Origin: a virus
Lineage: Duplodnaviria > Heunggongvirae > Uroviricota > Caudoviricetes
Length of the DNA stretch: 13,914 bases
Reading direction: 5' to 3' (one strand)
Virus record (IMG/VR): IMGVR_UViG_2698536392_000012
Coordinates: 1 to 13,914 of that record
In this document: in pieces, positions 1-11,908 of the stretch
Layout of the letters: each line of letters opens with the position of its first letter
Position numbering within the stretch: position 1 is the stretch's first letter
Notes under the pieces: model-generated
The model's database searches: none
The model's input: only the letters and a program-made list of their open reading frames with translations
What the model was told of the DNA's origin: nothing
Made by a program: the position numbers and the translations under genes

Positions 1-41
1 AACCACCAGCGCGTTTACTGTACTGGCGTGATTTCAGTCAT

Positions 42-64
42 AAAAAAACCCGCCTGGCGACGGG
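42..64 (-). terminator. tR'-like intrinsic terminator about 80 nt downstream of the Q stop
   Basis: On the minus strand, hairpin CCCGUC-GCCA-GGCGGG (49-64) followed by a 7-T run (42-48). Its position just past Q matches the short terminated late transcript that Q antiterminates in lambdoid phages. Confidence 0.45.
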
Positions 65-145
65 TGTAAAAAATCTTCTAACGTCAGGCATAAAACGCCC
101 ATCGTTAGGGCAAATTTACCACAGATTCGGGAAAAATCAACAAAG

Positions 146-967
146 CTATCTGGTCACCTTTTTCAGTTGTTGTTCTGCCCATGCTTCTTCAATATCAAAC
201 TGCACCACCAGCGTATCGTAAAAACGTTTAACTGTTTTTTTCCATGTATCAAGAGATATGGCATCGGTTACATTACATATGGCATTAAATGCCTCCGTTG
301 AAGGTAATCTTTCATAGCCACGACCACCACAACGCTGGCAGTCTCTGATAACAGGCATACCACGTTTTACCGACTCTTCACGATGAATGGCAACACCGCG
401 CCCACGACAATCTTTACAGGCAGTGGATACCTCTCCCTTCCCTCCACACTCCGGACAGGCAACTTTTACCACCTCCCTGACTTTTTTCCATTCCTCCCAG
501 TAAGACGGATACACGCCTTTTGTGCACTTTGCCCACACTGGCGGCTTACCATCCGGATACTGGATCTTGTTTGTAAAAACCTCGCTTTCAATAAATTTTT
601 TTCCGTGACAACAGGGGCACTGTTTTTTGCTCGCCGCGCTACGGGCATAATCTTCAAACGCATACGAAGCCATAATACGCATCACTGCCGGTTTTATTTC
701 TGCCGGGAGTTTTCTTAACGCCGCCACGCGATCACACCGACTGAGTGCATATTCTGTCAGCAATTCTGTTGCCCGCTCTCTGTCATTCATACTAATGCCC
801 ATTTTCCCAAGGAACGCAGAAAACCCCATCTCAGCCCAATTCTGTGTCATGCCCTGCGCGGCCATCACATCAGTGATACTCAGCGTATCTTTCGACGTTG
901 AGGCCGATGCATCAGTCAGGCCGGGGGATTTTGGGGAGTAGTATTTCGGTAAATCTTCCAGTTTCAT
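146..967 (-). CDS. Phage antitermination protein Q family (late gene activator)
   Basis: 273 aa, ATG start. Several CxxC/CxxCxGxG zinc-finger motifs (CPCCHGKK, CPECGGKG, CKDCRGRG, CQRCGGRG). Last gene of the early-right operon, directly after rusA with an ATGA start/stop overlap, as for the Q-like antiterminators of Qin-type prophages. Confidence 0.7.
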   Translation of the reverse strand: MKLEDLPKYYSPKSPGLTDASASTSKDTLSITDVMAAQGMTQNWAEMGFSAFLGKMGISMNDRERATELLTEYALSRCDRVAALRKLPAEIKPAVMRIMASYAFEDYARSAASKKQCPCCHGKKFIESEVFTNKIQYPDGKPPVWAKCTKGVYPSYWEEWKKVREVVKVACPECGGKGEVSTACKDCRGRGVAIHREESVKRGMPVIRDCQRCGGRGYERLPSTEAFNAICNVTDAISLDTWKKTVKRFYDTLVVQFDIEEAWAEQQLKKVTR

Positions 968-1344
968 TTTTTGACCTGCCCTTCAAGCATTATGGGGTAA
1001 ATTTTCACCCCCAGACGTCCACCAGATACTGGCTGAGCACGAACGATATTGATTTCATCAAACTGCTCATCGTCCATTAGCAACCCCGCATGCGTCAGCG
1101 CATCCAGCGGCGCTTTCAGAATATTGTCCAGGTCACGGCGGCGCTTATCCGGTGGCTCGGCAATAATCTTTATCGCCAGCCTTCCGGACAGGCTTAATTT
1201 CAGCCGCTGCTGGCGAACAATAAGCGCCACAGCCCGGCGATAACGCTCACCGGCTTTTGATACAAAATATGTGTTGCCACGACGTCGCCAGTAAGTATTC
1301 ACCGTCGGCGGGTAAGGCAAAACAAATTCTATGCGTTCAGTCAT
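964..1344 (-). CDS. rusA: Holliday junction resolvase RusA
   Basis: 126 aa; from recall it resembles E. coli RusA (matching motif RRRDLDN, similar length). Typical nin-region position upstream of Q. Confidence 0.85.
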   Translation of the reverse strand: MTERIEFVLPYPPTVNTYWRRRGNTYFVSKAGERYRRAVALIVRQQRLKLSLSGRLAIKIIAEPPDKRRRDLDNILKAPLDALTHAGLLMDDEQFDEINIVRAQPVSGGRLGVKIYPIMLEGQVKK

Positions 1345-2403
1345 TCATGCTTTCCACTTCAGGACACCCGAATTTCTCGCGTGCATTAAAAAACGAATCA
1401 GCAACAACAGCTGGCTGCCGTGTTTTTCTTCAAAATCTTTTACCCCGGCGTGCAGTTCGTTATGACATTTACGGCACAGCGGAATAACAAACAAATCATC
1501 AGCCTTTGTTCCCATCCCTCCCAGTCCATGACCAATGATGTGATGCGGATCATCTGCCTGATTACCGCACGTCATGCATTTCTGCGTTTTTACCCAGCGC
1601 GTGTATACAGGCATCTCTTCCCGTTGTGGTTTCTGGCGCTGGAGATACTGAGCCGGAGATTCCGGATCAACGGCAATGCTGACCACCGCCTTTTCCTGTG
1701 ACGGGATTTGTTGCTGGTGGACGTGAGGCAACGGCGCAAGATTTTTTGTGCGCTGCTTCAGTATGCTGGTGGCGGTCTGCTCTCCCGGTACGATGTCGCT
1801 TTCGCGATACACCGAGTGGATTTTTTCCGCACGTAACCCCAGAGAACGACGCAATACTGCCTCCGGAAGCGCGTCCGCCACCTGATTGCAGACCGCCCAC
1901 CAGGATAATTCAGCCAGCGACAATTCCCGCTCCTGCGTGCCATTCATTGCATGGCGTATGACGTCAATCATCCATGCTGACAGGTTTTGATGAGCAAGTT
2001 GCTCGAGTGATTCGGAGGTCTGGTCGCGCAGCTGGTTGTCGCAGTGCCAGCACAACACCATTGCGCCGGTACCATAACGGTGAATGACGGTTTCACTGTG
2101 GTGATAATCGCCGTGTGGCCACTGGCAGGATTTAACATGGCGCAGTAACCAGTCAGACAATGCGCCAGCGCCACCAGCAGCACGAATCACTCGTTCGTCG
2201 CTGAAAAATGGCAGTAATGATTTATCCTCCGCCAGCGGCTGGCGAACGGCAGGAACGACCCCGGACGACAGATTACGCATGCTTTTCGGTTCCGGCTCCA
2301 CCAGTACCCGGGTATTGTGGAATACCGGCATGGATTCACGGCCCGGCTTAACGATCACCAGCCCGAGTTCCGGTACCAGAACAGGTCGAAGTAATACCCG
2401 CAC
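1345..2403 (-). CDS. DUF968/YdfU-like prophage protein with C-terminal Cys/His (HNH-like) motif
   Basis: 352-aa ORF. C-terminal CMTCGN...HHIIGHGLGG...CRKCHNELH zinc/HNH-like motif, as recalled for YdfU-type proteins. The ORF-track start is a GTG; the true start may be an internal ATG (residue 25 or 42). The stop abuts the rusA start. Confidence 0.55.
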   Translation of the reverse strand: MRVLLRPVLVPELGLVIVKPGRESMPVFHNTRVLVEPEPKSMRNLSSGVVPAVRQPLAEDKSLLPFFSDERVIRAAGGAGALSDWLLRHVKSCQWPHGDYHHSETVIHRYGTGAMVLCWHCDNQLRDQTSESLEQLAHQNLSAWMIDVIRHAMNGTQERELSLAELSWWAVCNQVADALPEAVLRRSLGLRAEKIHSVYRESDIVPGEQTATSILKQRTKNLAPLPHVHQQQIPSQEKAVVSIAVDPESPAQYLQRQKPQREEMPVYTRWVKTQKCMTCGNQADDPHHIIGHGLGGMGTKADDLFVIPLCRKCHNELHAGVKDFEEKHGSQLLLLIRFLMHARNSGVLKWKA

Positions 2404-2404
2404 G

Positions 2405-2683
2405 TTACCTCCAGATGCGTTGCTGGAATGTGCGGGACGGACGCGGTGGGCGTTCAGAGTAAGGAAGCCTGACGGAGATTATCCAGTGACGATAATCGAG
2501 GCTGAGGGCTTTCTTAATCCCGTATCCGTGTCTGCGGTAGCACTGAATTAGCCATTCAGCTTGTTCTTCAGTACATGGGGGATGCTGGTACCAATCAGAT
2601 TTGAATGTGCGGGAACGCCGCCCGTGCCTGCTGGCAAAGACAGCTGAATTATCAGAATTGTGTGATTTGGTATTGTGCGCCAT
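2405..2683 (-). CDS. Hypothetical nin-region protein (92 aa from internal ATG)
   Basis: The ORF-track start at 2764 lies inside the terminator hairpin, so the ATG at 2683 (MAHNTKSHNS...) is the more plausible start. Basic, Cys-containing, no recognised domain. Could correspond to the small rem-like gene found here in Qin-type prophages, but I cannot confirm this. Confidence 0.4.
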   Translation of the reverse strand: MAHNTKSHNSDNSAVFASRHGRRSRTFKSDWYQHPPCTEEQAEWLIQCYRRHGYGIKKALSLDYRHWIISVRLPYSERPPRPSRTFQQRIWR

Positions 2684-2760
2684 CGTCTTTCTCTGCTGGC
2701 GCAGCAGGTGCCAGTTGTTCAGGCTGACGTGCGAATTGTAAACCAGAATGCCAGGAAAAA

Positions 2761-2782
2761 ACAAAACCCGCCGAAGCGGGTT
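2761..2782. terminator. Bidirectional intrinsic terminator hairpin (copy A of a 22-bp direct repeat)
   Basis: AACCCGC-cgaa-GCGGGTT stem-loop flanked by an A-run upstream and a T-run downstream, so it can terminate on either strand. Identical 22 bp (ACAAAACCCGCCGAAGCGGGTT) recur at 4109-4130. Confidence 0.55.
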
Positions 2783-2798
2783 TTGTCAGTACTGAACA

Positions 2799-2948
2799 TC
2801 AAGCTGCGTGCTTGCCACTACAACTGCAAAGTGGGATCGGGAAAGGCTTCCCTTTTTTCGCGTGGCGCATTACACCATCTACACACACAGAGTAGCGAAA
2901 AATGATCTCACATGGACAGCCACATTTGCGACAGGTACCCATTGCCAT
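2799..2948 (-). CDS. Possible small Cys-rich protein (about 49 aa from internal ATG)
   Basis: ORF between the ImmA stop and terminator A containing CRKCGCPC and CSCSG motifs. Weak RBS and the ORF-track start is GTG, so this is low confidence. Confidence 0.2.
   Translation of the reverse strand: MAMGTCRKCGCPCEIIFRYSVCVDGVMRHAKKGKPFPIPLCSCSGKHAA
2838..2858 (+). terminator. Possible plus-strand intrinsic terminator
   Basis: GGGAA-aggc-TTCCC hairpin followed by TTTTTT on the plus strand. It lies inside the small minus-strand ORF and may block antisense read-through. Confidence 0.3.
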
Positions 2949-3115
2949 GATTTCGTTTTCCCTGCTCACCTGTGAATCCACACAGGTTGCACTTTGTTGG
3001 GAGAACCACTACACTTCGCTTGTCTACAAAAAGTGTTGTGATTGGATTATCTCCATACACTACGGAATGTGTTAGCGCACTTTCCGTCCCTAAAAGCCCT
3101 GTTAGCGCAGGGCTT

Positions 3116-3592
3116 TTACATATAAAAATCGAACGACATCTGTTGTGTTCTCACGCCAATTGTTTCCAGTACGATATCCGCAAATGTATCTGCCTGCCAT
3201 TCTGCATCCTCAATACGAGTAGGTTCTTTAACTGAAAAGTGTAAAACTGCTTTGTGTCCAAGAAGCAAATGACCTAGCTCGTGGAAGATAACAGCAAGTG
3301 CATGCTCTTCCCCAAGGCAAGCATTCACATATATTTTATTGGGAACCGTAATTGTTAGAGAAGCGGGGTCACAATGTCCGATAGTTAGATCATACGTCAG
3401 AGCCTCCCACTCTTTGTCGGTCCTGACGTCAAGAGTAACCCCATAAATTGACAGGCTTTCAAAGAACATATCATAACGCTTTCTTTTGCGCTTTGAGGCT
3501 GTAAGACCAATAGCATTACAGAAGTTTATAGCTCTGTAGGCTATTTCTTCTTCTTGCATCGGTGACACCCTGTTACCTCTCATTTGATACAT
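3116..3592 (-). CDS. ImmA/IrrE-family (COG2856) Zn metallopeptidase
   Basis: 158 aa with HELGHLLLGH (HEXXH) and a downstream EDAEWQADTFA motif, the usual third zinc-ligand region of ImmA/IrrE peptidases. Strong SD (GAGGGG) inside the 3' end of the upstream HTH gene; 2-nt intergenic gap. Confidence 0.7.
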   Translation of the reverse strand: MYQMRGNRVSPMQEEEIAYRAINFCNAIGLTASKRKRKRYDMFFESLSIYGVTLDVRTDKEWEALTYDLTIGHCDPASLTITVPNKIYVNACLGEEHALAVIFHELGHLLLGHKAVLHFSVKEPTRIEDAEWQADTFADIVLETIGVRTQQMSFDFYM

Positions 3593-3594
3593 AA

Positions 3595-3954
3595 TTACCC
3601 CTCATTGTTATTAATCTTTTGCAATAAATCTGCAAAACTCTTTAGCTGTTCCGGCGTAAACTGCGACTTAGCGAATCCCGCTACAAGCATTTTCTGTTGC
3701 TGAGACAAACCGTTTACTGGAACTGAGTCATTCGCAACTGCCGCTAACTCCTGTAACCCTTCAATTTCTACACCTTTGGCCTTGAAGTAAGAATCAATCT
3801 TCTTAACCCACTTCAGAGGTATTTTTTTGCTACCAGTTTCTAAACCGCTAAGAAACGCTGGCGTAGTGCCCAGTTCTTGAGACATAGTCAGAAGAGTACT
3901 GTCAGTATCGATCCTCGCTTTTCTAACGGCCTTACCGAATTCAGTGAGTGCCAT
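3595..3954 (-). CDS. XRE-family helix-turn-helix transcriptional regulator (ImmR-like partner of ImmA)
   Basis: 119 aa. N-terminal HTH (LLTMSQELGTTPAFLSGLETG). SD GAGGA 8 nt upstream of the ATG, with an AT-rich promoter-like region further upstream. Confidence 0.75.
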   Translation of the reverse strand: MALTEFGKAVRKARIDTDSTLLTMSQELGTTPAFLSGLETGSKKIPLKWVKKIDSYFKAKGVEIEGLQELAAVANDSVPVNGLSQQQKMLVAGFAKSQFTPEQLKSFADLLQKINNNEG

Positions 3955-4108
3955 GATTTTATCCTCAATTTGTTGATTTAGCAGACTTGCCTAACGCAAG
4001 CCTGATGGGCGCTTAAATTCTAATTCCTAAAATTTACCATATACGAAAGCAAAGTAAACCTTTTTAGTTAAAAAAATCTCCTTTAAGGGAATTTTTTTCA
4101 CAAAAAGA

Positions 4109-4130
4109 ACAAAACCCGCCGAAGCGGGTT
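4109..4130 (-). terminator. Intrinsic terminator hairpin (copy B of the 22-bp direct repeat), terminating the hok transcript
   Basis: Same AACCCGC-cgaa-GCGGGTT hairpin as at 2761-2782, followed on the minus strand by TTTGTTCTTTTTG. Located about 70 nt downstream of the hok stop. Confidence 0.5.
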
Positions 4131-4198
4131 AAGTGCGGGTGCGTTGAGGATGCCTGACACATCAGAGGTGGCGAGGGATTTCTCCCCCGCCAGGTCTC

Positions 4199-4354
4199 TT
4201 ACTCCTCAGGTTCGTAAGCTGTGAAGACAGCGACCTCCGTCTGGCCGGTTCGGATTCGTACCTCGCAGAGGTCTTTCCTCGTTACCAGTGCCGTCACTAT
4301 GACGGTTAAACAGATGACGATCAGGGCGATTAACATCGCCTTTTGCTGCTTCAT
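4199..4354 (-). CDS. hokD: Hok/Gef-family type I toxin (HokD/RelF-like)
   Basis: 51 aa MKQQKAMLIALIVICLTVIVTALVTRKDLCEVRIRTGQTEVAVFTAYEPEE, recognised from recall as HokD/RelF-like. SD AAGGAG 9 nt upstream. The ORF-track in-frame upstream extension (to 4411) is probably not used. Confidence 0.85.
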   Translation of the reverse strand: MKQQKAMLIALIVICLTVIVTALVTRKDLCEVRIRTGQTEVAVFTAYEPEE

Positions 4355-4598
4355 AGCCTGCTTCTCCTTGCCTTTCGGCACGTAAGAGGCTAGCCTACAT
4401 GTGCAAGTCATAGATATGGCCTCAGATTAATGTTAAGCGTCTTGCCGGACGCGTAATGTTAACTGGGGCTTTTCTCTGTCTGCCTTACGGCGGCATGCCC
4501 GAGGCAGACAGCCTCAAGCACCCGCAGCAATTCTACTTAACTCTCGCTTTACAGCAAACCGTTTTTGCCCGATATGGGAATTCCCATACGGAATGAAT

Positions 4599-4703
4599 TC
4601 AGTTCCCCAGGCGATCCATCAAAAACACAACCAGGCAGTAAACACCCACAACAGCAATAACAGCCAGAGCGCCTTCCATTACCAGTGAAATATCATCCGA
4701 CAT
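4599..4703 (-). CDS. Small hydrophobic peptide (34 aa), candidate small membrane protein or type I toxin-like ORF
   Basis: MSDDISLVMEGALAVIAVVGVYCLVVFLMDRLGN: acidic N-terminus plus one predicted TM helix. Very strong SD (AAGGGAGGG) 3-4 nt before the ATG, and promoter-like hexamers upstream. Not in the ORF track because it is under 60 aa. Confidence 0.35.
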   Translation of the reverse strand: MSDDISLVMEGALAVIAVVGVYCLVVFLMDRLGN

Positions 4704-4812
4704 ATTCCCTCCCTTGGTGTGAATTCCGGCGAACGTTTTTACCCCCACCGACAAATAACATATACTAGAAAAGCAATAGCTATAGCAACGCCTGCAAATG
4801 CATCGGGCCGGC

Positions 4813-5646
4813 TCATTGGTGCGCCCCCTGTATCGCTTCTACTGCGATCTGACTGGCGTATTTGTTAATGGTAACGATAAGTTCTTGCTCGGCCTCATCC
4901 AGACAACCACCGATACCTCGCCTGTCACCTTCAGAAGCATCGAAATCTGCACGAACCCTGGCGACCTTCAGGATTGCGGACAACACCTCATCAGGGATTG
5001 CCGGAGAGTTGGTTGACGTTTCCGAGGTTATCCGAAAATTATTGGTTGACGAATTCTTATTTTCCCGAAAGTTTTCGGCATGAAGCATGGCGGTGTTATA
5101 CCCATCCGCGAAAATCTCTGCTTCTTCGTTATTCAGTTCGGCACCAAGTTTAAGCGCAATAGCTTTTGCCATTGAGGCGGTAATTTGATGGCATGGCTGA
5201 CGTCCATGAAGCATGGCGTCGCTCCGCTCTATGCCATCCAGCGCAATTCGAAGCGCATGAATTGTAGTAATGCTATCGTTTGGGGTTATTCCGTATCGTT
5301 CGAATACAGCGATATGGTTGCGCATAATCGCAGGTGTAAGCTCTTTGTAAGCAAGAGCAAGAGGTCCAGATACATCGTTCAGCACTACCGTCATCGGTGA
5401 GGCGGCGTAGACTTCAATAATCCCAGTATCAATAGGCCATTCCCCATCCTTGATATAGTAACTTGTTCCGTCAACTTGCTGTTCTACAATGTGGAAAGCA
5501 CCTATTGGTTCTGCTTCCAGCGATGCCAGTGCAATTTTGAATAACTCGCCCTCTACCCGTGCCATCCCTGAATTGGGGTAGCATTTCGCAATCGCTATTT
5601 TTAATTTGGCTTCTTCGATTAATTTCTCTTTGGTTAATTCAGTCAC
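4813..5646 (-). CDS. Hypothetical protein (277 aa), unknown function
   Basis: Long ORF with a GTG start preceded by a CCGCCC-gaaa-GGGCGG hairpin. No recognised catalytic motif. Co-oriented downstream of the 70-aa and 119-aa genes. Confidence 0.55.
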   Translation of the reverse strand: MTELTKEKLIEEAKLKIAIAKCYPNSGMARVEGELFKIALASLEAEPIGAFHIVEQQVDGTSYYIKDGEWPIDTGIIEVYAASPMTVVLNDVSGPLALAYKELTPAIMRNHIAVFERYGITPNDSITTIHALRIALDGIERSDAMLHGRQPCHQITASMAKAIALKLGAELNNEEAEIFADGYNTAMLHAENFRENKNSSTNNFRITSETSTNSPAIPDEVLSAILKVARVRADFDASEGDRRGIGGCLDEAEQELIVTINKYASQIAVEAIQGAHQ

Positions 5647-5681
5647 TTTTCATTACCGCCCTTTCGGGCGGCCTCCTGACA

Positions 5682-5894
5682 TTAATCGTTGTGATAACTC
5701 ATAGCTTCATTTGCAGCATCAACTGGATCAACATCCCACCAGCAATAATTTGGGTCGACACCTTCAGGTGTCCACGGCTCTAATTCATTTTTTGCTACAT
5801 TCTCGTCACCAGTAATTTTAAAAATCTGCTCAGAGAATTTTTTTACCCACTCGTTATATTTTTCCGCGTTAATGGTTTTCTGTGTATTTAACAT
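5682..5894 (-). CDS. Hypothetical small acidic protein (70 aa)
   Basis: Strong SD (GGAGG) upstream of the ATG. Rich in D/E and W (WTPEGVDPNYCWWDVDPVDAANE). No recognised domain. Confidence 0.5.
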   Translation of the reverse strand: MLNTQKTINAEKYNEWVKKFSEQIFKITGDENVAKNELEPWTPEGVDPNYCWWDVDPVDAANEAMSYHND

Positions 5895-5939
5895 AGATAT
5901 ACCTCCGGTTAAGGATTAAATTTTATTTACAGTGCTGAT

Positions 5940-6299
5940 TTAATATTCAGTTCTGGCTTTTGTTGCCCTGCGTATCCGCGCTTTCGCGTTACGCTCAATC
6001 TGAATTAGCTTTTCTATATTTTTTCGCCTTTCCTGTTCCTCCTGGCGCAATAGCCTTACATCATCTGCCAGTCTGGTTTCTCTTTTAGCCACAGAGAGCA
6101 TCCAGTCAAACGGCTCCACAACTGCACCACAGATTTTGCAGCGGACCTGACGCTCTTTTTCGTCAACCCGGACAGAAGCGTGATGGCAGTATGGTCTTTC
6201 CGATGGCTCATAGAGAAAATTAACCTGATTACGTGGGTCATCCTCTTTTACCGGAAATAAAACGATATTGCTTAACTCATCTTCTGGTTTTATTTCCAT
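5940..6299 (-). CDS. Hypothetical zinc-ribbon protein with basic coiled-coil C-terminus (119 aa)
   Basis: SD AAGGAG 7 nt upstream. C-HH...CxxC spacing (CHHASVRVDEKERQVRCKICG) suggests a zinc ribbon. The C-terminus is Arg/Lys/Glu-rich and helical-looking. Confidence 0.55.
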   Translation of the reverse strand: MEIKPEDELSNIVLFPVKEDDPRNQVNFLYEPSERPYCHHASVRVDEKERQVRCKICGAVVEPFDWMLSVAKRETRLADDVRLLRQEEQERRKNIEKLIQIERNAKARIRRATKARTEY

Positions 6300-6356
6300 G
6301 GTCCTCTCCTTTGATGCGAATGCCAGCGATAATTGAAGCCTGATAGCTAATTTTAC

Positions 6357-6779
6357 TCACAGCCCCCCCCCCTGATAATTTCCCTGATAAAACGCCAGCA
6401 CTCGCTGCATAACTTCGCTCTTCCGGCACTCGCGACAGATTATATTCAGGCGCCTGTCGTAACGACGTATTTCTCCATCAGGTAATGACCAGATAAGGTC
6501 CGGATCAACCGCAGATGGTTTCTTCAGCTTTGCCCTTGAGAGCTTTTTACGGGCATTTTGCCAGTCCTTACGCGCCTGTTCAGACGGGAATAACCCGTAA
6601 CCAGAGTTGTATACATCGCCACTGGCAACCAGCTCTCTGGCCAGAACGCTCATCAGATATCTTGTTGCCCCAGTTTTAGCTTCCAGTTGTCGTAACGTCT
6701 CGCGCCCACTCTGGCGTACGAGTTCAAGAACCTGCCCTTTAATTTTTTCCCGCTCTTCTTGTGTAAAAACTTTTGCCAC
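6357..6779 (-). CDS. Hypothetical protein with putative winged-helix motif (140 aa), in the position of a replication accessory gene
   Basis: GTG start with strong SD (AGGAGG). Follows the O-like gene where lambda carries P. Too short for a DnaC/DnaB-type loader. The 3' end contains a G10 homopolymer on the coding strand. Confidence 0.55.
   Translation of the reverse strand: MAKVFTQEEREKIKGQVLELVRQSGRETLRQLEAKTGATRYLMSVLARELVASGDVYNSGYGLFPSEQARKDWQNARKKLSRAKLKKPSAVDPDLIWSLPDGEIRRYDRRLNIICRECRKSEVMQRVLAFYQGNYQGGGL
6363..6372. repeat. C10/G10 homopolymeric tract at the 3' end of the 140-aa CDS
   Basis: Ten consecutive C on the plus strand (G10 on the coding strand) encoding the GGG of the C-terminal ...QGGGL, ending 4 nt before the stop codon. 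Confidence 0.9.
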
Positions 6780-6819
6780 AAGCCCTCCTGAAAATTACCT
6801 CATGACCAGAAATACACAC

Positions 6820-7890
6820 TTACCCCCTGAAGCCCGGTGGAATTTCGGTATCCGGTTCAGAAATATGATTCACACAACGCTGGTTGTTCGTACCGCTTAC
6901 CGGGAGCAACCAGGGGTTTTCAAAATTCCGGTCCGGTCCAAAAAACGTCGTCGCTCGCTGAACAAATTCCGTTCCCGTTTTCCCGGTAGCCGCCAGGTAT
7001 CTTGCGTAACGCCTCACACCATCCAGCATGGCCTCTGGTGGCACCCCCTCGCGTAATCTGGCCTTCCAGGCACTGAAAGCGGATTTCTTCGGGTTTGCCC
7101 CAGCACGCAACGGGTATTCCCGCCAGACCTGTTCGAACACATCCGGATAATCTACTCGCCCCACAGGCTGCCCGGTGTTTTCCGGGACTACCCGATCGGC
7201 TTCCCGCTGAATGGCGGAATCGGCTTCAGGCTGCTGCAGTTGGTGTGATTGCTCCGGCCTTGCGGTCATCACCTGCTGCACAGCGCCCGAATCGGCTTTC
7301 AGCGCATACGCTGAATCGGCTTCCGGTGTCGTGCCTGCTGGCTGACCAGGATTGACGGTCTGAACATCCCCTGCCTGGTTCGTGGCGTTTTTTACGCCAT
7401 GGACCATAGTGTTTTGATCTTCTTGATCTGTATCTTTATCTGTATCTTTATCTGTCGTGACTCGTCGTGACATGTGCGTGACATTTCGTGACGCGCCGTG
7501 ACAATCGCCATTTTGTTCCCGCTTTCTTTCCCTCTCTCGCTGCGCCCTCTTGCGCTCTGCAGGAGATTTTGCGGTTTGCGAAATATTGCCGTTGTCCTCT
7601 TTCAGCACCTGGCGTTTTTCCCATCCAGTGATTAAATCACCATCAAGTACCCGCCCCTGCATCGTCTGCAAAATTGAATCAATTACCTCTTCTGTCACGT
7701 CGAGCGCACTTGCCAAATCTTCTGTCGTGACATCAATGTGACCTCGCGTGACATTTCGTGACGCGCTCACCAGGAGGTGGATATACACTGCCATCACTGT
7801 TGCAATTGGCTGCCCTGACACCCTGGCAATTGTTCGCCACTTAGGGTCATTTGGCATGTCATGCCATAATCTGAGCCAGGCGTTAGCCAT
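6820..7890 (-). CDS. Phage replication initiator / replisome organiser (lambda O-like), containing the putative origin
   Basis: About 356 aa from the ATG at 7890 (the ORF track starts two codons earlier at a GTG). The coding sequence contains clustered CGTGAC repeats (iterons), as in the lambda O gene. The C-terminal region (YPLRAGANPKKSAFSAWKARL...) resembles prophage replication proteins from recall. Confidence 0.65.
   Translation of the reverse strand: MANAWLRLWHDMPNDPKWRTIARVSGQPIATVMAVYIHLLVSASRNVTRGHIDVTTEDLASALDVTEEVIDSILQTMQGRVLDGDLITGWEKRQVLKEDNGNISQTAKSPAERKRAQRERERKREQNGDCHGASRNVTHMSRRVTTDKDTDKDTDQEDQNTMVHGVKNATNQAGDVQTVNPGQPAGTTPEADSAYALKADSGAVQQVMTARPEQSHQLQQPEADSAIQREADRVVPENTGQPVGRVDYPDVFEQVWREYPLRAGANPKKSAFSAWKARLREGVPPEAMLDGVRRYARYLAATGKTGTEFVQRATTFFGPDRNFENPWLLPVSGTNNQRCVNHISEPDTEIPPGFRG
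7427..7502. repeat. Putative origin iteron cluster 1 inside the O-like gene
   Basis: 12-bp tandem repeat TCTGTATCTTTA x2.4 (7427-7455) followed by five CGTGAC copies starting at 7456, 7466, 7477, 7487 and 7497 (10-11 bp spacing, one helical turn). Confidence 0.6.
7721..7766. repeat. Putative origin iteron cluster 2 inside the O-like gene
   Basis: CGTGAC/TGTGAC copies at 7726, 7738, 7747 and 7757. The 21-bp segment GCGTGACATTTCGTGACGCGC (7746-7766) is an exact copy of 7476-7496. An inverted GTCACG copy sits at 7694-7699. Confidence 0.6.
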
Positions 7891-7961
7891 ACTCACCTCT
7901 TCTGATACCGAATCTTTTTACTCACGAGTTGCCGGAAGCGATTCGATATGGCTATTGTCAG

Positions 7962-8387
7962 TCAATGTACTGCCACAGCATTTCCTGCCGGGCCACCACG
8001 ATTCATCTGATTGAAACCGGCGATTGCCACTGCGACAAAATCATCAGCGTCTCTCACCAGTCGCTCCCGCGTCTCCACCAGCTCCCGAAAATAAGCTGAA
8101 CTGTGGCTGCGCATTCTGGCCACCAGCAAAGGTGGCATTGCCTTTTCGATCGCTGGTAACAACGCCTGAATTTTTTCAACTGCATCAGGGGTGTCTTTCT
8201 CTACCCAGCGGAAAATTTTCTGGGTATTACGAGCCAGGGCTTCCGGATGGCTGTCGTCGTACAGTTCCGGGAACGTCATCCCCAGTTCGAAATAAGTCCG
8301 GGCTATTTCAGCTGCAGGAACTTTCTCACCATCAGGGTATGCCCAGGCATTCATCGCCATGCGGATGTGCTCATGCTTGATTTTCAT
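7962..8387 (-). CDS. YdaT-like protein (CII-position regulator of Rac/Qin-type prophages)
   Basis: 141 aa starting MKIKHEHI..., which I recall as characteristic of YdaT-family proteins. Its start overlaps the cro-like stop (ATGA), suggesting translational coupling. Confidence 0.55.
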   Translation of the reverse strand: MKIKHEHIRMAMNAWAYPDGEKVPAAEIARTYFELGMTFPELYDDSHPEALARNTQKIFRWVEKDTPDAVEKIQALLPAIEKAMPPLLVARMRSHSSAYFRELVETRERLVRDADDFVAVAIAGFNQMNRGGPAGNAVAVH

Positions 8388-8647
8388 GAATCAACTCCCA
8401 GCGCGGGTTGTGTGTTAGCCTGATAGTCAACAGGTATGCCATCGGTTGGGTTGGGGTAAGTACTGCTATCAATCTCGTGCGGGGTCACTACCCACCCTGT
8501 TGCTTCACACCAGCGTAAAACTTTCCCCCCCGTAAGTTTCGCCCGTCCAGTAATAACATGGCTTACCATCCCTTGGGTTACCCCAACAATTTCAGCAAAA
8601 TCTTTCTGGGTTATACGGGAATGATGCAAATATTCTCCAAGATTCAT
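8384..8647 (-). CDS. Cro/YdaS-like HTH DNA-binding protein (first gene of the early-right operon)
   Basis: 87 aa with HTH (ITQKDFAEIVGVTQGMVSHVI). SD GAGGT 5 nt upstream. Divergent from the repressor gene across an operator-containing intergenic region. Confidence 0.7.
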   Translation of the reverse strand: MNLGEYLHHSRITQKDFAEIVGVTQGMVSHVITGRAKLTGGKVLRWCEATGWVVTPHEIDSSTYPNPTDGIPVDYQANTQPALGVDS

Positions 8648-8679
8648 TGTTCACCTCATGTTATGTGACCATGAGCATT

Positions 8680-8739
8680 AATAGCATTGTTATTTTTAAA
8701 AGTAAATAGCATCGCTATTTCAAAGAGATTAATAATCTT
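8680..8739. promoter_or_regulatory. Divergent promoter/operator region (OR-like) between the cro-like and repressor genes
   Basis: Perfect palindrome AAATAGC-atc-GCTATTT (8704-8720), imperfect copy TAATAGC-att-GTTATT (8680-8694) centred 25 bp away, and a 13-bp palindrome AGATTAaTAATCT (8727-8739). Confidence 0.6.
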
Positions 8740-8754
8740 ATTAGAATTGAAGGT

Positions 8755-9255
8755 ATGAAAAGAAAACCCCTGTCAGAGATCGACCTGCAAGCCGCCCAGA
8801 GACTGAAAGAAATCTGGACGACGAAAAAAACTCAACTTGGGTTAACCCAAGAGCGTGCGGCAGAAATTCTGGGTTTTTCGACACAAGGGGCAGTAAGCCA
8901 TTATCTAAATGGTCAGACACCTTTAAATCTAGAGGCTGTTATCAAGTTCGCTGGGTTGCTACAAGTTCCGCCTGAGTCAATTAGACCAGATATGGCAGAC
9001 TTGTTACGAATTGTAAGGATGTACCCCCAAGAACTGCAGCAGGATAATGTTGTCGCTTTACCCGCAGAGATGGAGCAATCGGAAAACGAACTTCCGTTTA
9101 ATATAGAACCTATAGAGCGAGATTTGATCCAGACGTTCAGGGCTTTCCCAAAAGAAGACAAAGAGAAAATGCTTAAGGAAATGAAGGAGAAAAAAGAATC
9201 AATTGAAGAAACCGTTGCGCGGTGGCTAGAGGCGCAAAAAGGTCGTCGCGCCTAA
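8755..9255 (+). CDS. DicA/CI-like HTH repressor, probably a PaaR-type regulator of the downstream toxin-antitoxin pair
   Basis: 166 aa with N-terminal XRE HTH (LGLTQERAAEILGFSTQGAVSHYLNG) and no S24 peptidase domain. C-terminal helical region similar in style to DicA. Followed 17 nt later by the paaA-parE-like genes on the same strand. Confidence 0.7.
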   Translation: MKRKPLSEIDLQAAQRLKEIWTTKKTQLGLTQERAAEILGFSTQGAVSHYLNGQTPLNLEAVIKFAGLLQVPPESIRPDMADLLRIVRMYPQELQQDNVVALPAEMEQSENELPFNIEPIERDLIQTFRAFPKEDKEKMLKEMKEKKESIEETVARWLEAQKGRRA

Positions 9256-9272
9256 TCTGAGGAGGTTAGAAC

Positions 9273-9464
9273 ATGAGTACAGTCCTTTCCCCGATAATTT
9301 CAGAATTTGAAACAATCGAACAAGAAAACAGCTATAACGAATGGTTACGCACCAAAGTGGCAGCAAGCCTCGCAGACCCCCGTCCTGCAATTCCGCATGA
9401 CGAAGTAATGGCTGAAATGGAAAACCTTATTGCGCAAATAGCTTCGACGAACAGGAGTGAGTAA
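9273..9464 (+). CDS. PaaA-like antitoxin (ParE-associated antitoxin)
   Basis: 63 aa. The core SEFETIEQENSYNEWLR...SLADPRPAIPHDEV resembles PaaA2 of E. coli O157 prophages from recall. Strong SD (GGAGG). Its stop overlaps the toxin start (TAATG). Confidence 0.7.
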   Translation: MSTVLSPIISEFETIEQENSYNEWLRTKVAASLADPRPAIPHDEVMAEMENLIAQIASTNRSE

Positions 9465-9754
9465 TGCTGCCCATTTTATGGCTACCTTCTGCGCGTGATG
9501 ATTTGCGTCAGATCGTAGCCTATATTGCCAAGGAAAACCCTCCCGCTGCACGTAGACTAAAAATACGCATTGAAACATCAGTTTTGTCACTTTCTGAACA
9601 TCCTTACCTGTATCCACCAAGCGAAAGAGCTCTAGGCCTTCGTGAGATAGTGACCCATCCTAACTACATAATACTTTACCGAGTAACAGCATCTAACATC
9701 GAGATCGTAAATGTAGTTCACTCACGAAGGCAGTATCCAAACAAAAGCTGTTAA
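9464..9754 (+). CDS. parE: ParE/RelE-superfamily toxin
   Basis: 96 aa with the typical ParE pattern (W.P.A..DL..I..YIA..NP.AA, REIV, NIEIVNVVHSRR). Translationally coupled to the upstream antitoxin. Confidence 0.8.
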   Translation: MLPILWLPSARDDLRQIVAYIAKENPPAARRLKIRIETSVLSLSEHPYLYPPSERALGLREIVTHPNYIILYRVTASNIEIVNVVHSRRQYPNKSC

Positions 9755-9768
9755 TCATTCCTACCAAC

Positions 9769-9792
9769 AACCACCTTCGGGTGGTTTTTTTT
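9769..9792 (+). terminator. Rho-independent terminator of the repressor-TA operon
   Basis: AACCACC-ttcg-GGTGGTT hairpin followed by a T8 run, 15 nt after the parE stop. Confidence 0.8.
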
Positions 9793-9810
9793 CTTACCTC
9801 CAAAAAAAAC

Positions 9811-9849
9811 AATAGCATTACTATTTACACGATAAAATAGCAGTGCTAT
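9811..9849. promoter_or_regulatory. OL-like operator pair / leftward early promoter region
   Basis: Perfect palindrome AATAGC-agt-GCTATT (9835-9849) and imperfect AATAGC-att-ACTATT (9811-9826), 24 bp centre to centre. Same half-sites as the sites at 8680-8720. Confidence 0.55.
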
Positions 9850-10028
9850 TGTTTATTCATCACCCACCCACCCCACAGAATGCAGGGCAATACCTCGAGT
9901 TACCCGGCAGTGGCCAGGGGTTAAGTAGCCAGCCCGAGGCGTATGAACATGACGGCGGGAACACTTTGTATAACAGCGCAGCAGGTTTTTAGTTCCGCGA
10001 CCCGGCGTTAAGGGTAAATGAGGTCAAC

Positions 10029-10181
10029 ATGGATATGCTCAATCTTGGCAACAACGAATCTCTGGTATGCGGAGTATTCCCCAACCTGGACGGCACGTTC
10101 ACCGCGATGACGTATACCAGAAGCAAAACGTTTAAAACGGAAGCTGGCGCGCGTCGCTGGTTAGCAAGAAACTCTGACTGA
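10029..10181 (+). CDS. Small hypothetical protein (50 aa), first ORF of the pL-side operon (YdfA-like position)
   Basis: SD GAGGT 5 nt upstream of the ATG. MDMLNLGNNESLVCGVFPNLDGTFTAMTYTRSKTFKTEAGARRWLARNSD. Identity not confirmed. Confidence 0.4.
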   Translation: MDMLNLGNNESLVCGVFPNLDGTFTAMTYTRSKTFKTEAGARRWLARNSD

Positions 10182-10279
10182 TGAAGGTTAGTAATTAAAG
10201 AGTTCTCCACAGGCGAAGTGGAATACGTTCGCCGGACACGGGTAAGCATCCGGCATGCTCTTTAACAATCTGGGTATTC

Positions 10280-10726
10280 CTAACCACAAAGGAATCGCAT
10301 CAATTTGGATTTTGCAGACAGTTTCTCTTGTTGTTCTACGGAGATTCCTATTTTGATCTGGGTTTTTAAGATTGCGATATCTTTAAGCGACGACCAAATA
10401 TTATCATCTGTTTTTTCCAGGAGCTTTAACTGCATTTTCAATTCCGAATCGGAATATTTTTCTGCATCATCATAAAGCTGCAGATATTCTGCGGATTTTC
10501 TCATTGCGTTACCTGACTTTTGTCCGAATCCGTAAATCGTTTGAACGGTTGCTATCACAACAATGAGAACTCCAGAAACTTCAGGAATAAATCCACCAAT
10601 GACAGATGAACCGAGGATAATACTCACCACTGAGAGAAGTTTATCGAGACGACCAGTCGCTACAGAGAATAGTTGTTCAAGAAAATAACCATATAAAACC
10701 CTGTCAAGAATATCATCCCGGTCCAT
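10280..10726 (-). CDS. Two-TM membrane protein (148 aa), candidate superinfection-exclusion/abortive-infection protein (SieB-like position; SLATT-like architecture)
   Basis: Two adjacent hydrophobic helices (LLSVVSIILGSSVIGGFIPEV, SGVLIVVIATVQTIYGF) followed by a charged, coiled-coil-like C-terminus. AT-rich and convergent to the pL-side genes, like sieB in Rac. Confidence 0.55.
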   Translation of the reverse strand: MDRDDILDRVLYGYFLEQLFSVATGRLDKLLSVVSIILGSSVIGGFIPEVSGVLIVVIATVQTIYGFGQKSGNAMRKSAEYLQLYDDAEKYSDSELKMQLKLLEKTDDNIWSSLKDIAILKTQIKIGISVEQQEKLSAKSKLMRFLCG

Positions 10727-10785
10727 ATATCATCACCTGCTTGTTTGATTGTTGCTGTTCCCCCTCTCCTCTGAAGGAGCTGGAG

Positions 10786-10983
10786 ATGGTTTTGGTCGAA
10801 TGTTTTTCTCAGGTATATGTTTCCTGGTATTCGGAATGTCCGACCTGTCCGCAGGCTTACCAGTACCTGAACAATTCTTTTGAACCACCATATAAAACAC
10901 CTTCCTGTTGTTGGGGATATCCAGATTATACAGATTATACAGATTTCCTGTCGTTGGGGAACGACGGAAACCACCTCGCCTGA
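10786..10983 (+). CDS. Possible small Cys-rich protein (65 aa)
   Basis: Good SD (AAGGAG, 6-nt spacer). CxxC and CC motifs and a YTDYTD repeat encoded by a 9-bp tandem DNA repeat (10912-10936). Could correspond to the small ydfB/ydfC-type genes upstream of dicF, unconfirmed. Confidence 0.3.
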   Translation: MVLVECFSQVYVSWYSECPTCPQAYQYLNNSFEPPYKTPSCCWGYPDYTDYTDFLSLGNDGNHLA

Positions 10984-11210
10984 CGTGGTTAAAAGCAGGC
11001 ACACAACGCGAAAGCGTACGGCGAAGCTCTTTCCCTTAGAAGGCTTGTCGTTAGATTTCTTCGAACGTGCGCTTCCGGTTGTGGCAATCCGCGAAATGGC
11101 GCGGCGGTAAGTATGGCGGGGTTATTCCTTCCCCAGTTGAGGACACCGGGTTGTCAGGTTGACCATACGCTTAAGTGACAACCCCGCTACAACGCCCTCT
11201 GTTATCAATA

Positions 11211-11268
11211 TTCTGGTGACATTTGGCGGTATCAGTTTTACTCCGTGACTGCTCTGCCGCCCTTTTTT
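11211..11268 (+). ncRNA. dicF: DicF small regulatory RNA (ftsZ-targeting sRNA of Qin-type prophages)
   Basis: TTCTGGTGACATTTGGCGGTATCAGTTTTACTCCGTGACTGCTCTGCCGCCCTTTTTT matches the recalled E. coli DicF sequence nearly base for base, including the GGCGG/CCGCC terminator stem and T-run. Sits immediately upstream of dicB. Confidence 0.8.
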
Positions 11269-11438
11269 AAAAGTGAATTTTGTGATGCGGTGAATGCGGC
11301 TCAGCGCACGCGGAACAGTTAAAACCAAAAACAGTGTTATGGGTGGATTCTCTGTATCCGGCGTTAATTGTTAACTGGTTAACGTCACCTGGAGGCACCA
11401 GGCACCGCATCACAAAATTCATTGTTGAGGACGCGATA

Positions 11439-11627
11439 ATGGAAAAGTTATCATGTAATGCCAGCACGTCTGAACTTCGTTTCGAAATTGGCGTTATCAC
11501 TGGAGACAAAACATTTATTGAAGACGCCATTAAGCAGAGAAAACTCGAGCAGGACCTGTTAAATGAAGTATGCATTCCTTCAATGCTGGCTCGTCTGGAC
11601 CTGCTGCAAAAAGGATATAAACAATGA
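11439..11627 (+). CDS. dicB: DicB cell-division inhibitor (MinC-dependent)
   Basis: 62 aa; the motifs FEIGV, EDAIKQRK and CIPSMLARL align with recalled K-12 DicB at the same length. Downstream of dicF as in Qin. Confidence 0.8.
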   Translation: MEKLSCNASTSELRFEIGVITGDKTFIEDAIKQRKLEQDLLNEVCIPSMLARLDLLQKGYKQ

Positions 11628-11815
11628 ATACAACATTTGCACTCGTTCTGACAGTTTATCTTGTTTCCGGCGAATCTCTTGAGCTGGTGACTGGCTTATA
11701 CGGTTCAATGAAAGAATGCATGGCTGCAGCAGCAGAACAAAAAATTCCCGGTAACTGTTATCCGGTAGATAAAACTACTCACACTAATAATAACGAAATA
11801 CCGGCAGGACTTTAA
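11624..11815 (+). CDS. ydfD: YdfD-like small membrane/lysis protein
   Basis: 63 aa with N-terminal TM helix (FALVLTVYLVSGE) and a C-terminus ending ...KIPGNCYPVDK...EIPAGL, resembling YdfD from recall. Start overlaps the dicB stop (ATGA). Confidence 0.7.
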   Translation: MNTTFALVLTVYLVSGESLELVTGLYGSMKECMAAAAEQKIPGNCYPVDKTTHTNNNEIPAGL

Positions 11816-11908
11816 AACAGCACCGTAATTAATATCCGGTTTCATTTTTATATGCCAGCAATGGCAGGGATTTGTTCACCCTTAAATCTGTAATGAGGTT
11901 AAAACAAA

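Follow-up and report, generated by a model that had tools for sequence, protein, structure and literature searches.

Pairs made of an XRE-type helix-turn-helix (HTH) protein and an ImmA/IrrE metallopeptidase are very common in phages and mobile elements, and the targets that they control are mostly unknown outside a few model systems. Such a pair lies in the 13,914-nt stretch of DNA analysed here (positions 1 to 13,914 of IMG/VR record IMGVR_UViG_2698536392_000012, hereafter the window), which is 100% identical to the chromosome of Escherichia coli strain 2013C-4830 (NZ_CP027325) and corresponds to the early and nin region of a lambdoid prophage. What does this pair control? An earlier note on this DNA had described a two-gene unit with a doubtful cargo. 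We found instead that a third gene, orf49, is conserved behind a 169-nt structured leader, and that the three genes belong to a 1,348-bp mobile operon ('moron') located immediately downstream of the hokD terminator (2756–4130).

Sequence variation among 38 distinct homologous sequences indicates that orf49 is a real, conserved gene under purifying selection. Codon-position entropy was 0.29/0.20/1.03 and the ratio of nonsynonymous to synonymous polymorphism (pN/pS) was 0.17, compared to 1.3–1.6 in other frames and 0.27 in the antisense frame that shares its wobble positions. An antisense-frame open reading frame (ORF) located at 2808–2975 was rejected, as 0.27 against 0.17 is expected of a frame shadowing a real gene. 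The cysteine-rich ORF of 49 to 60 aa that the earlier note considered dubious therefore stands as a gene in its 49-aa form. The 60-aa form, which adds an 11-codon extension, was discarded because in several homologues of the alignment its upstream start lies in another frame or runs into a stop. The orf49 family forms 16 clusters among 1.84 billion representatives, follows the consensus M..G.C.KCG..CE(V/I)IFR...DG....PK.G..FPIP.C.C and is the most constant part of the unit. Of the 48 E. coli carriers of the cassette, most have no RefSeq annotation for this gene.

The orf49 protein is basic (net charge of about +6 in the window, by hand count) and cysteine-rich, and reading of the sequences revealed no hydrophobic stretch. 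Its CxxC and CxC motifs probably form a zinc ribbon, and its AlphaFold2 model is all-beta with a predicted local distance difference test score (pLDDT) of 79. No match was found in Pfam, NCBIfam, PHROGs or PADLOC, comparison with the PDB by sequence gave a chance-level match only, and a Foldseek search of the model against the PDB and BFVD returned only an uncharacterised homologue. Because the protein is basic and probably binds zinc, our best guess is that its target is a nucleic acid. A 47-aa relative in a Mu-like prophage of Neisseria meningitidis (locus L190, 3186–3329) keeps the IFR...KNGKPFKIP core and has lost all cysteines; hence, zinc binding is not essential to the orf49 family.

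The leader that separates the peptidase gene from orf49 is conserved to the same degree as the coding parts. It lacks three-base periodicity, which excludes it as a coding sequence and also argues against the different, unsupported ORF annotated across it in the record of a Klebsiella phage (MK422450). In an alignment of 34 diverse sequences, a five-helix structure had 91.7% of cells paired, compared to 31–49% with slid partners, and 14 pairs showed changes on both sides, compared to 4–8 in the slid controls. None of 500 shuffles reached any of the observed measures. G-U pairs are frequent and would read as C-A on the other strand; therefore, the structure belongs to the orf49 strand. An additional inner helix (ACACTT/AAGTGT) was dropped, as 22 of the 34 sequences break one of its pairs. 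A permissive Rfam search (to E 10) gave no match inside 2949–3117, and its sole match above gathering score was sok, beside hokD and outside the cassette. At the upstream end of the leader, hairpin H1 is followed by a U run that is short and variable on the sense strand (2–4 U). In 42 of 51 distinct contexts, 1–10 nt separate H1 from the stop codon of the upstream gene, leaving no room in the gap for a separate promoter.

H1 and the adjacent hairpin H2 (3063–3117) have different stems and an identical loop, and across homologues the loop changes in both together. The variants observed were CGCUAA, CUAGGA, CUUCGAA, CUGCAAA, CUGAGAA, CUCUAA, GUGAGA, UUGACG and UUGGCA. The two loops matched in 12 of the 15 loop combinations present in the 34-sequence alignment, and none of 20,000 permutations did as well. 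Furthermore, the loop type is independent of the orf49 sequence, as shown by a locus (L013) encoding a 96% identical protein behind a different loop. We found no consistent site on the sense strand that is complementary to the H1/H2 loops and co-varies with them. Loop-loop kissing via palindromes was rejected since it fits only four variants. By hand count, 8 of 10 loop variants contain a YUNR tetramer, a typical motif of fast-pairing recognition loops in antisense-controlled RNAs. Our best guess is that the H1/H2 loops are diversified 'address' loops for antisense pairing, although cis-antisense pairing alone does not require two identical loops.

A candidate source of such an antisense RNA lies within the leader itself. 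A promoter-like element of the form TTGCnn-17-TAnnnT was found on the opposite strand in all 34 diverse leaders, as well as in a distant homologue from a skin metagenome and, with a 16-nt spacer, in Neisseria. Positions 3 to 5 of its -10 element, which tolerate change in promoters, vary, whereas T1, A2 and T6 never do, and pairing leaves unaccounted for the conservation of the sense-strand bases that match T1 and T6. By comparison, no conserved sigma-70-type promoter was found on the sense strand of the leader, where a comparable motif occurs in only 2 of 34 sequences. Read on the plus strand, H1 is a hairpin followed by TTTT. The predicted transcript folds into a single-stranded 5' end and three hairpins, the last one followed by a U run, with a z-score of -5.3. 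The leader is thus predicted to encode a cis-antisense RNA.

Upstream of the leader, the note's calls of a COG2856-type zinc peptidase with a HEXXH motif and of an XRE-HTH regulator were both borne out at the positions given. The peptidase scored 24.6 bits against Pfam Peptidase_M78 (PF06114; cut-off, 22) and matched PHROG 87 'metallo-protease' (E 7e-17). Its HEXXH zinc site (HELGH, residues 104–108) is followed by the conserved Glu of the ExxA(N/D)xFA motif, and among 45 homologues, with identities as low as 37%, H104, E105, H108, E131, W132, Q133, A134, D135 and F137 never vary. A search of the PDB by sequence and a first scan of genome contigs with the peptidase alone gave no match. The AlphaFold2 model (pLDDT 86, predicted template-modelling score 0.82) found selecase, Deinococcus PprI/IrrE and a transcriptional regulator of Mycobacterium tuberculosis as its best solved matches in Foldseek (E about 0.01–0.05). 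PprI (8sln) and IrrE (3dti) were among the top four with probabilities of 0.97–0.99, but with an E of only 0.02 and template-modelling scores of 0.46–0.48. The RefSeq annotation has the peptidase begin at Met12 (147 aa). Residues 2–9 of the longer form are nearly invariant in the 45 homologues; therefore, the 158-aa start at 3592 is the likelier one.

The HTH protein alone gave only weak matches (HTH_31, E 0.017, below the Pfam cut-off; PADLOC HTH_VI, E 1e-6), and its membership in the XRE family (Cro/C1-type HTH) was established through its homologues. Nine of 12 aligned homologues match HTH_3 at E <= 0.01, and a 52% identical homologue from Neisseria passes the cut-offs of HTH_19, HTH_31 and HTH_3. 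Homologues share 65–86% identity and an invariant C-terminal QxxLxxxFA stretch. The operon's own promoter, which the note had also proposed, has a candidate whose position and TGGTAAAtT motif are kept in an alignment of 15 homologues. Fifteen diverse homologous cassettes have kept a palindrome, AACCAAAwTGGTT, ahead of the XRE gene, and the XRE protein may bind its copy in the window, AACTAAAAAGGTT. The stem of a hairpin in the 5' untranslated region (5'-UTR) shows compensatory changes among homologues (CAGGC/GCCTG, CAGGT/ACCTG and CAGAGT/ACTCTG); possible roles of this hairpin are transcript stability or a second operator. The predicted layout of promoter, palindrome, hairpin and ribosome-binding site (RBS) is as expected of a self-repressed XRE operon.

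The boundaries of the cassette are set by a duplicated terminator. The 22-mer ACAAAACCCGCCGAAGCGGGTT occurs exactly twice, at the positions reported by the note (2761–2782 and 4109–4130), and this duplication was seen in none of 200 shuffles. The repeat lengthens to 27 nt with one mismatch (2756–2782 vs 4104–4130), and both copies read on the minus strand as a G+C hairpin followed by a T run. As the note had remarked, the block between them is AT-richer, with a G+C content (GC) of 0.41–0.44 vs 0.50–0.57 in the flanks. Comparison with related prophages then confirmed a presence/absence indel flanked by the repeat. In E. coli 28A18CPO003A (locus L002), a single hairpin copy follows hokD and is bordered by the window's own left and right flanks; therefore, the two loci differ by exactly 1,348 bp including one repeat unit. 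Some part of the hokD/DUF968 query was matched in 4,778 of 5,426 complete E. coli genomes, of which only 48 carry the cassette, all at the hokD site and with 98–100% identity, and most related prophages with the same hokD-DUF968 backbone lack it. Strain O55:H7 TB182A is another of the carriers besides 2013C-4830. The element is thus optional between conserved backbone genes and has its own promoter candidate and terminator. The proposal of a moron between hok and the DUF968 gene consequently holds, except that the two are not direct neighbours, as a 92-aa gene intervenes on the DUF968 side. Homologous cassettes at other sites end in nearly the same hairpin, AAACCCGCTTCGGCGGGTTTT, and many are also preceded by a CCCGC-loop-GCGGG-T-run hairpin. 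Since the terminal hairpins are nearly identical, the duplication likely arose by recombination inside a short terminator sequence common to the cassette and the end of the hokD transcript.

The back end is found well beyond E. coli. The Klebsiella phage MK422450 has a version of the cassette that is 75% identical in DNA and extends over the region downstream of the peptidase gene; the small ORF there agrees with orf49 in start, stop and length. Protein- and DNA-pattern searches revealed over 100 further loci in Yersinia, Lelliottia, Kluyvera, Kosakonia and IMG/VR contigs, and the hosts of the back end include lambdoid, P2-like and Mu-like prophages. The order HTH, M78, gap of about 170–180 nt, small ORF was shared by the Klebsiella phage, Yersinia, the skin-metagenome contig and Mu-like prophages of N. 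meningitidis, in one of which the gap is about 180 nt. Furthermore, the leader and orf49 were found behind five kinds of front end: XRE and M78 proteins of the window type; XRE and M78 proteins only 30–55% identical to those of the window; HicA and HicB plus a 146-aa protein; a Gp49/HigB-like toxin plus an HTH_37 antitoxin; and a 108-aa plus a 304-aa protein, both without matches. The 146-aa protein after HicB (L015, 2388–2828) and the 108-aa and 304-aa pair (L033, 1516–2768) have no Pfam match and sit where XRE and M78 sit in the window. At least three of the front ends hold a DNA-binding protein of the kind that represses its own promoter in toxin-antitoxin operons. These comparisons indicate that the leader and orf49 are a back end shared by cassettes with front ends other than XRE and ImmA.

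Given the anatomy of the unit, its presence or absence at the hokD site, the coding status of orf49, the structure of its leader and the modular reuse of the back end, we consider it on balance probable that the element is a three-part moron: a protease-controlled, self-repressed operon with orf49 as its output and with further control by the leader and the predicted antisense RNA. One transcript would start from the promoter near 4031–4058, cover the XRE gene, the peptidase gene, the leader and orf49, and end at 2760–2787. A single transcript is supported indirectly, because the leader has no conserved sense promoter and the upstream stop codon abuts H1. The XRE protein would repress its own promoter via the palindrome, and a stress or infection signal would cause the peptidase to cleave it, by analogy with ImmA/ImmR, IrrE/DdrO and CapP/CapH. 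The resulting burst of operon transcript would pass H1 into the leader and outnumber the antisense RNA of about 100 nt, and orf49 would then be translated as the output.

Several points weigh against this interpretation. Masking the antisense target lowered the predicted accessibility of the RBS only slightly (mean, 0.42 to 0.35; window, 0.37 to 0.32), with a fall in 23 of 34 sequences; degradation of the duplex is no less likely a mode of antisense action than a structural switch. No relative of known function was detectable for orf49 in the libraries searched. H1 could act as a terminator splitting two independent units, and among the front ends are complete toxin-antitoxin pairs (HicAB, Gp49/HigB with its HTH protein), which need no output gene. 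Finally, the 27-nt flanking repeats could equally mediate deletion, and the junctions alone do not prove insertion over loss; therefore, polarity rests on the rarity of the cassette, its lower GC and its near-clonal sequence rather than on the joints.

The main alternative is possible, though we would not call it probable. According to this explanation, the XRE and M78 genes form a self-contained regulatory or toxin-antitoxin-like unit ending at H1, and the leader, antisense RNA and orf49 are a separate type-I-like module. The joining of the back end to unrelated front ends, including complete toxin-antitoxin pairs, is consistent with two modules, as are the hairpin-then-U-run shape of H1 and the conserved antisense promoter-like element, which overlaps the leader as in type I systems. 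In addition, Mu-like contigs hold the small ORF without an adjacent called XRE or M78 gene, about 550 nt upstream being unexamined. However, a leader without a conserved sense promoter, an upstream stop codon that abuts H1 in most contexts and a U run that is short and variable on the sense strand all count against it, as does the basic, cysteine-rich orf49 product, which is unlike the hydrophobic membrane peptides of classic type I toxins.

That the cassette is an anti-phage abortive-infection system appears improbable. In such a system, XRE and M78 would sense infection or DNA damage in the manner of CapH/CapP, with orf49 as the toxic effector. Weak PADLOC matches to capP (E 0.0035), capH (E 0.0097) and RmrA point in this direction, and the prophage slot occupied by the cassette is variable, with rem and other small inserts found in it as well. 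Moreover, an ImmA/IrrE peptidase domain occurs within the E. coli defence system PD-lambda-2, recovered in a functional screen (PMC9519451). Nevertheless, the PADLOC scores are far from significant and no known defence effector lies nearby. Defence would in any case be a possible biological role of the protease-controlled operon favoured here rather than a different mechanism. ImmA-type proteases are also known to inactivate repressors in ICEBs1 and in Listeria phage elements. It is nonetheless very unlikely that XRE and M78 serve the prophage's own induction circuit, with the peptidase inactivating the prophage repressor: although the CI-like repressor (8755–9255) has an HTH but no LexA-type S24 domain and therefore needs other means of inactivation, the cassette is optional and absent from most related prophages with the same backbone, has homologues in prophages whose immunity regions differ (P2-like, Mu-like and other lambdoid ones), and carries its own partner HTH protein and operator candidate.

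Table 1. Features of the cassette and, below them, of the host prophage around it. Positions are those of the window; both parts are listed by increasing coordinate, and transcription on the minus strand runs opposite to this order.
Feature	Position	Strand	Remarks
Left repeat copy, cassette terminator	2756–2787	-	Downstream insert boundary; repeat plus terminator-like site
orf49	2799–2948	-	49-aa basic protein, CxxC...CxC, probable zinc ribbon; 38 distinct homologous sequences
Structured leader, non-coding	2949–3117	-	169 nt, between peptidase stop codon and orf49; covariation
orf49 RBS	2959–2963	-	AGGGA
Pre-RBS hairpin	2968–2987	-	
Antisense promoter-like element	2987–3015	+	TTGCAC (2987–2992), 17-nt spacer, TACACT (3010–3015)
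Leader helix GGAGA:UCUCC	3000–3004 with 3050–3054	-	
Leader helix P4	3005–3009 with 3038–3042	-	
Predicted antisense RNA	3022–3121	+	About 100 nt, both ends deduced; ends at the other-strand hairpin of H1, AAAAGCCCTG-TTAGCG-CAGGGCTTTT
Leader hairpin H2	3063–3086	-	
Leader hairpin H1	3092–3117	-	Overlaps peptidase stop codon
M78 (ImmA/IrrE, COG2856) zinc peptidase	3116–3592	-	158 aa; Pfam, PHROG, motif and structure model
XRE-type HTH protein	3595–3954	-	119 aa; predicted self-repressor and predicted peptidase substrate
5'-UTR hairpin	3982–4004	-	CAGGCTTGC-GTTAG-GCAAGTCTG; followed by RBS GAGGA (3962–3966)
Operon promoter candidate	4031–4058	-	-35 TTTACT (4053–4058), 16-nt spacer, extended -10 TGgTAAATT (4031–4039); read from sequence
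Palindromic operator candidate	4057–4069	-	AACTAAAAAGGTT; overlaps promoter -35; conserved in homologues
Right repeat copy, hokD terminator hairpin	4109–4130	-	Upstream insert boundary; exact 22-mer; terminator-like site 4130–4113; the copy in the empty site (L002) has the right flank of this copy
Q antiterminator	146–967	-	
rusA		-	Between Q antiterminator and DUF968/HNH gene by coordinate
DUF968/HNH gene	1345–2403	-	
92-aa gene	2405–2683	-	PHROG 1212
hokD with sok	4199–4500	-	Beyond the cassette by coordinate
Replication genes and immunity region			At higher coordinates than hokD

Insertions recur in the slot just past the hokD terminator; in other E. coli strains (loci L004, L005 and L006), its occupants are rem, a 130-aa gene likewise located between two hairpin copies, and one further insert. 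The 3' end of the hokD transcript (4109–4190) gave a sub-threshold Rfam match to isrK (27 bits vs a gathering score of 50), which probably reflects merely a shared terminator shape. At the immunity region, the 166-aa CI-like protein matches HTH_3 only and lacks a LexA-type S24 peptidase domain. Genes for PaaA2 and ParE directly follow it (8755–9754), an arrangement that we take to resemble the paaR2-paaA2-parE2 three-gene toxin-antitoxin system of O157 prophages.

Judged by sequence, the front end is of a kind known already, since the peptidase passes the M78/ImmA-IrrE tests and the HTH protein is an XRE relative. In contrast, our literature searches returned no description of this module. To our knowledge, and within the libraries searched, neither a back end with a structured leader, a conserved antisense promoter-like element, matched loops and a small probable zinc-ribbon protein, nor its reuse behind unrelated toxin-antitoxin-like pairs, has been described. 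The cassette supplies a concrete candidate for the output of an XRE and M78 pair, one overlooked by standard annotation, and with it a layer of RNA control. The presence of the same back end behind classic toxin-antitoxin pairs suggests a general design, in which self-repressed two-gene modules are sensors for a downstream small effector; such a design would change the reading of 'orphan' toxin-antitoxin and XRE-peptidase pairs in prophages. A broader proposal, which we put forward only tentatively, is that the leader and orf49 constitute a new, widespread small-protein output family gated by antisense RNA. It would act as a plug-in back end for interchangeable self-repressed, stress-sensing front ends (XRE and M78, HicAB, HigBA-like and others), and the paired identical loops would be an address code against cross-talk between co-resident copies. 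The system is easy to test, being 1.35 kb long and offering natural strains with and without the cassette as well as natural loop variants.

Among characterized systems, the front end most resembles ImmR/ImmA of the Bacillus subtilis element ICEBs1 and DdrO/IrrE (PprI) of Deinococcus, which likewise combine an XRE repressor with a COG2856/M78 peptidase bearing HEXXH and a downstream ExxA(N/D)xFA motif. As in immR-immA, the repressor gene comes first and the peptidase gene next in the same operon, and both systems have a palindromic operator at the pair's own promoter, for which the cassette has a candidate. IrrE has extra domains that the minimal 158-aa peptidase of the cassette lacks, and cleavage of the partner is predicted here. 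The output also differs: ImmR/ImmA and DdrO/IrrE control an integrative element or a DNA-repair regulon, whereas the cassette would control a single small protein behind a structured leader. CapH/CapP, a damage- or infection-responsive switch for a linked effector, also consists of an HTH repressor and an ImmA-like protease, but the PADLOC matches of the cassette to it are weak and non-significant. No effector of a cyclic-oligonucleotide-based antiphage signalling system (CBASS) or of another known defence system was found near the cassette, its neighbours being hokD and nin-region genes. Furthermore, CapH/CapP are usually divergent from the operon that they control, unlike the cassette genes, which are co-oriented with their putative output.

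The back end recalls type I loci such as hok/sok and ralR/ralA of Rac, in which a small gene with a long structured 5' leader faces a cis antisense RNA with stem-loops, as predicted here. The RalR toxin, like the orf49 protein, is small, cysteine-rich and of a non-membrane type. However, the small gene of the cassette has no conserved promoter of its own and its protein is not hydrophobic. No sequence similarity to known type I families was detected in the profile-library and Rfam searches. As a whole, the cassette resembles the lambdoid morons of Hendrix and colleagues, which are optional blocks with their own promoter and terminator and a distinct base composition, located between two backbone genes. 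Nothing essential differs, and the duplicated 22–27-nt terminator makes the recombination joint unusually clear. Makarova et al. 2009 (PMC2701414) predicted that an unknown third component is under the control of Xre-COG2856 pairs. In those three-component systems and in PD-lambda-2 (Vassallo et al. 2022), as in the cassette, mobile elements carry a third gene linked to the pair. There, a RelE/PIN/HigB-type toxin, its gene located upstream, is the third partner, and Xre is usually fused to the peptidase. In the cassette, by contrast, Xre and the peptidase are separate, and the third gene lies downstream and encodes a 49-aa probable zinc ribbon behind an RNA leader. The orf49 back end is a concrete candidate for the third component predicted by Makarova et al. 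2009.

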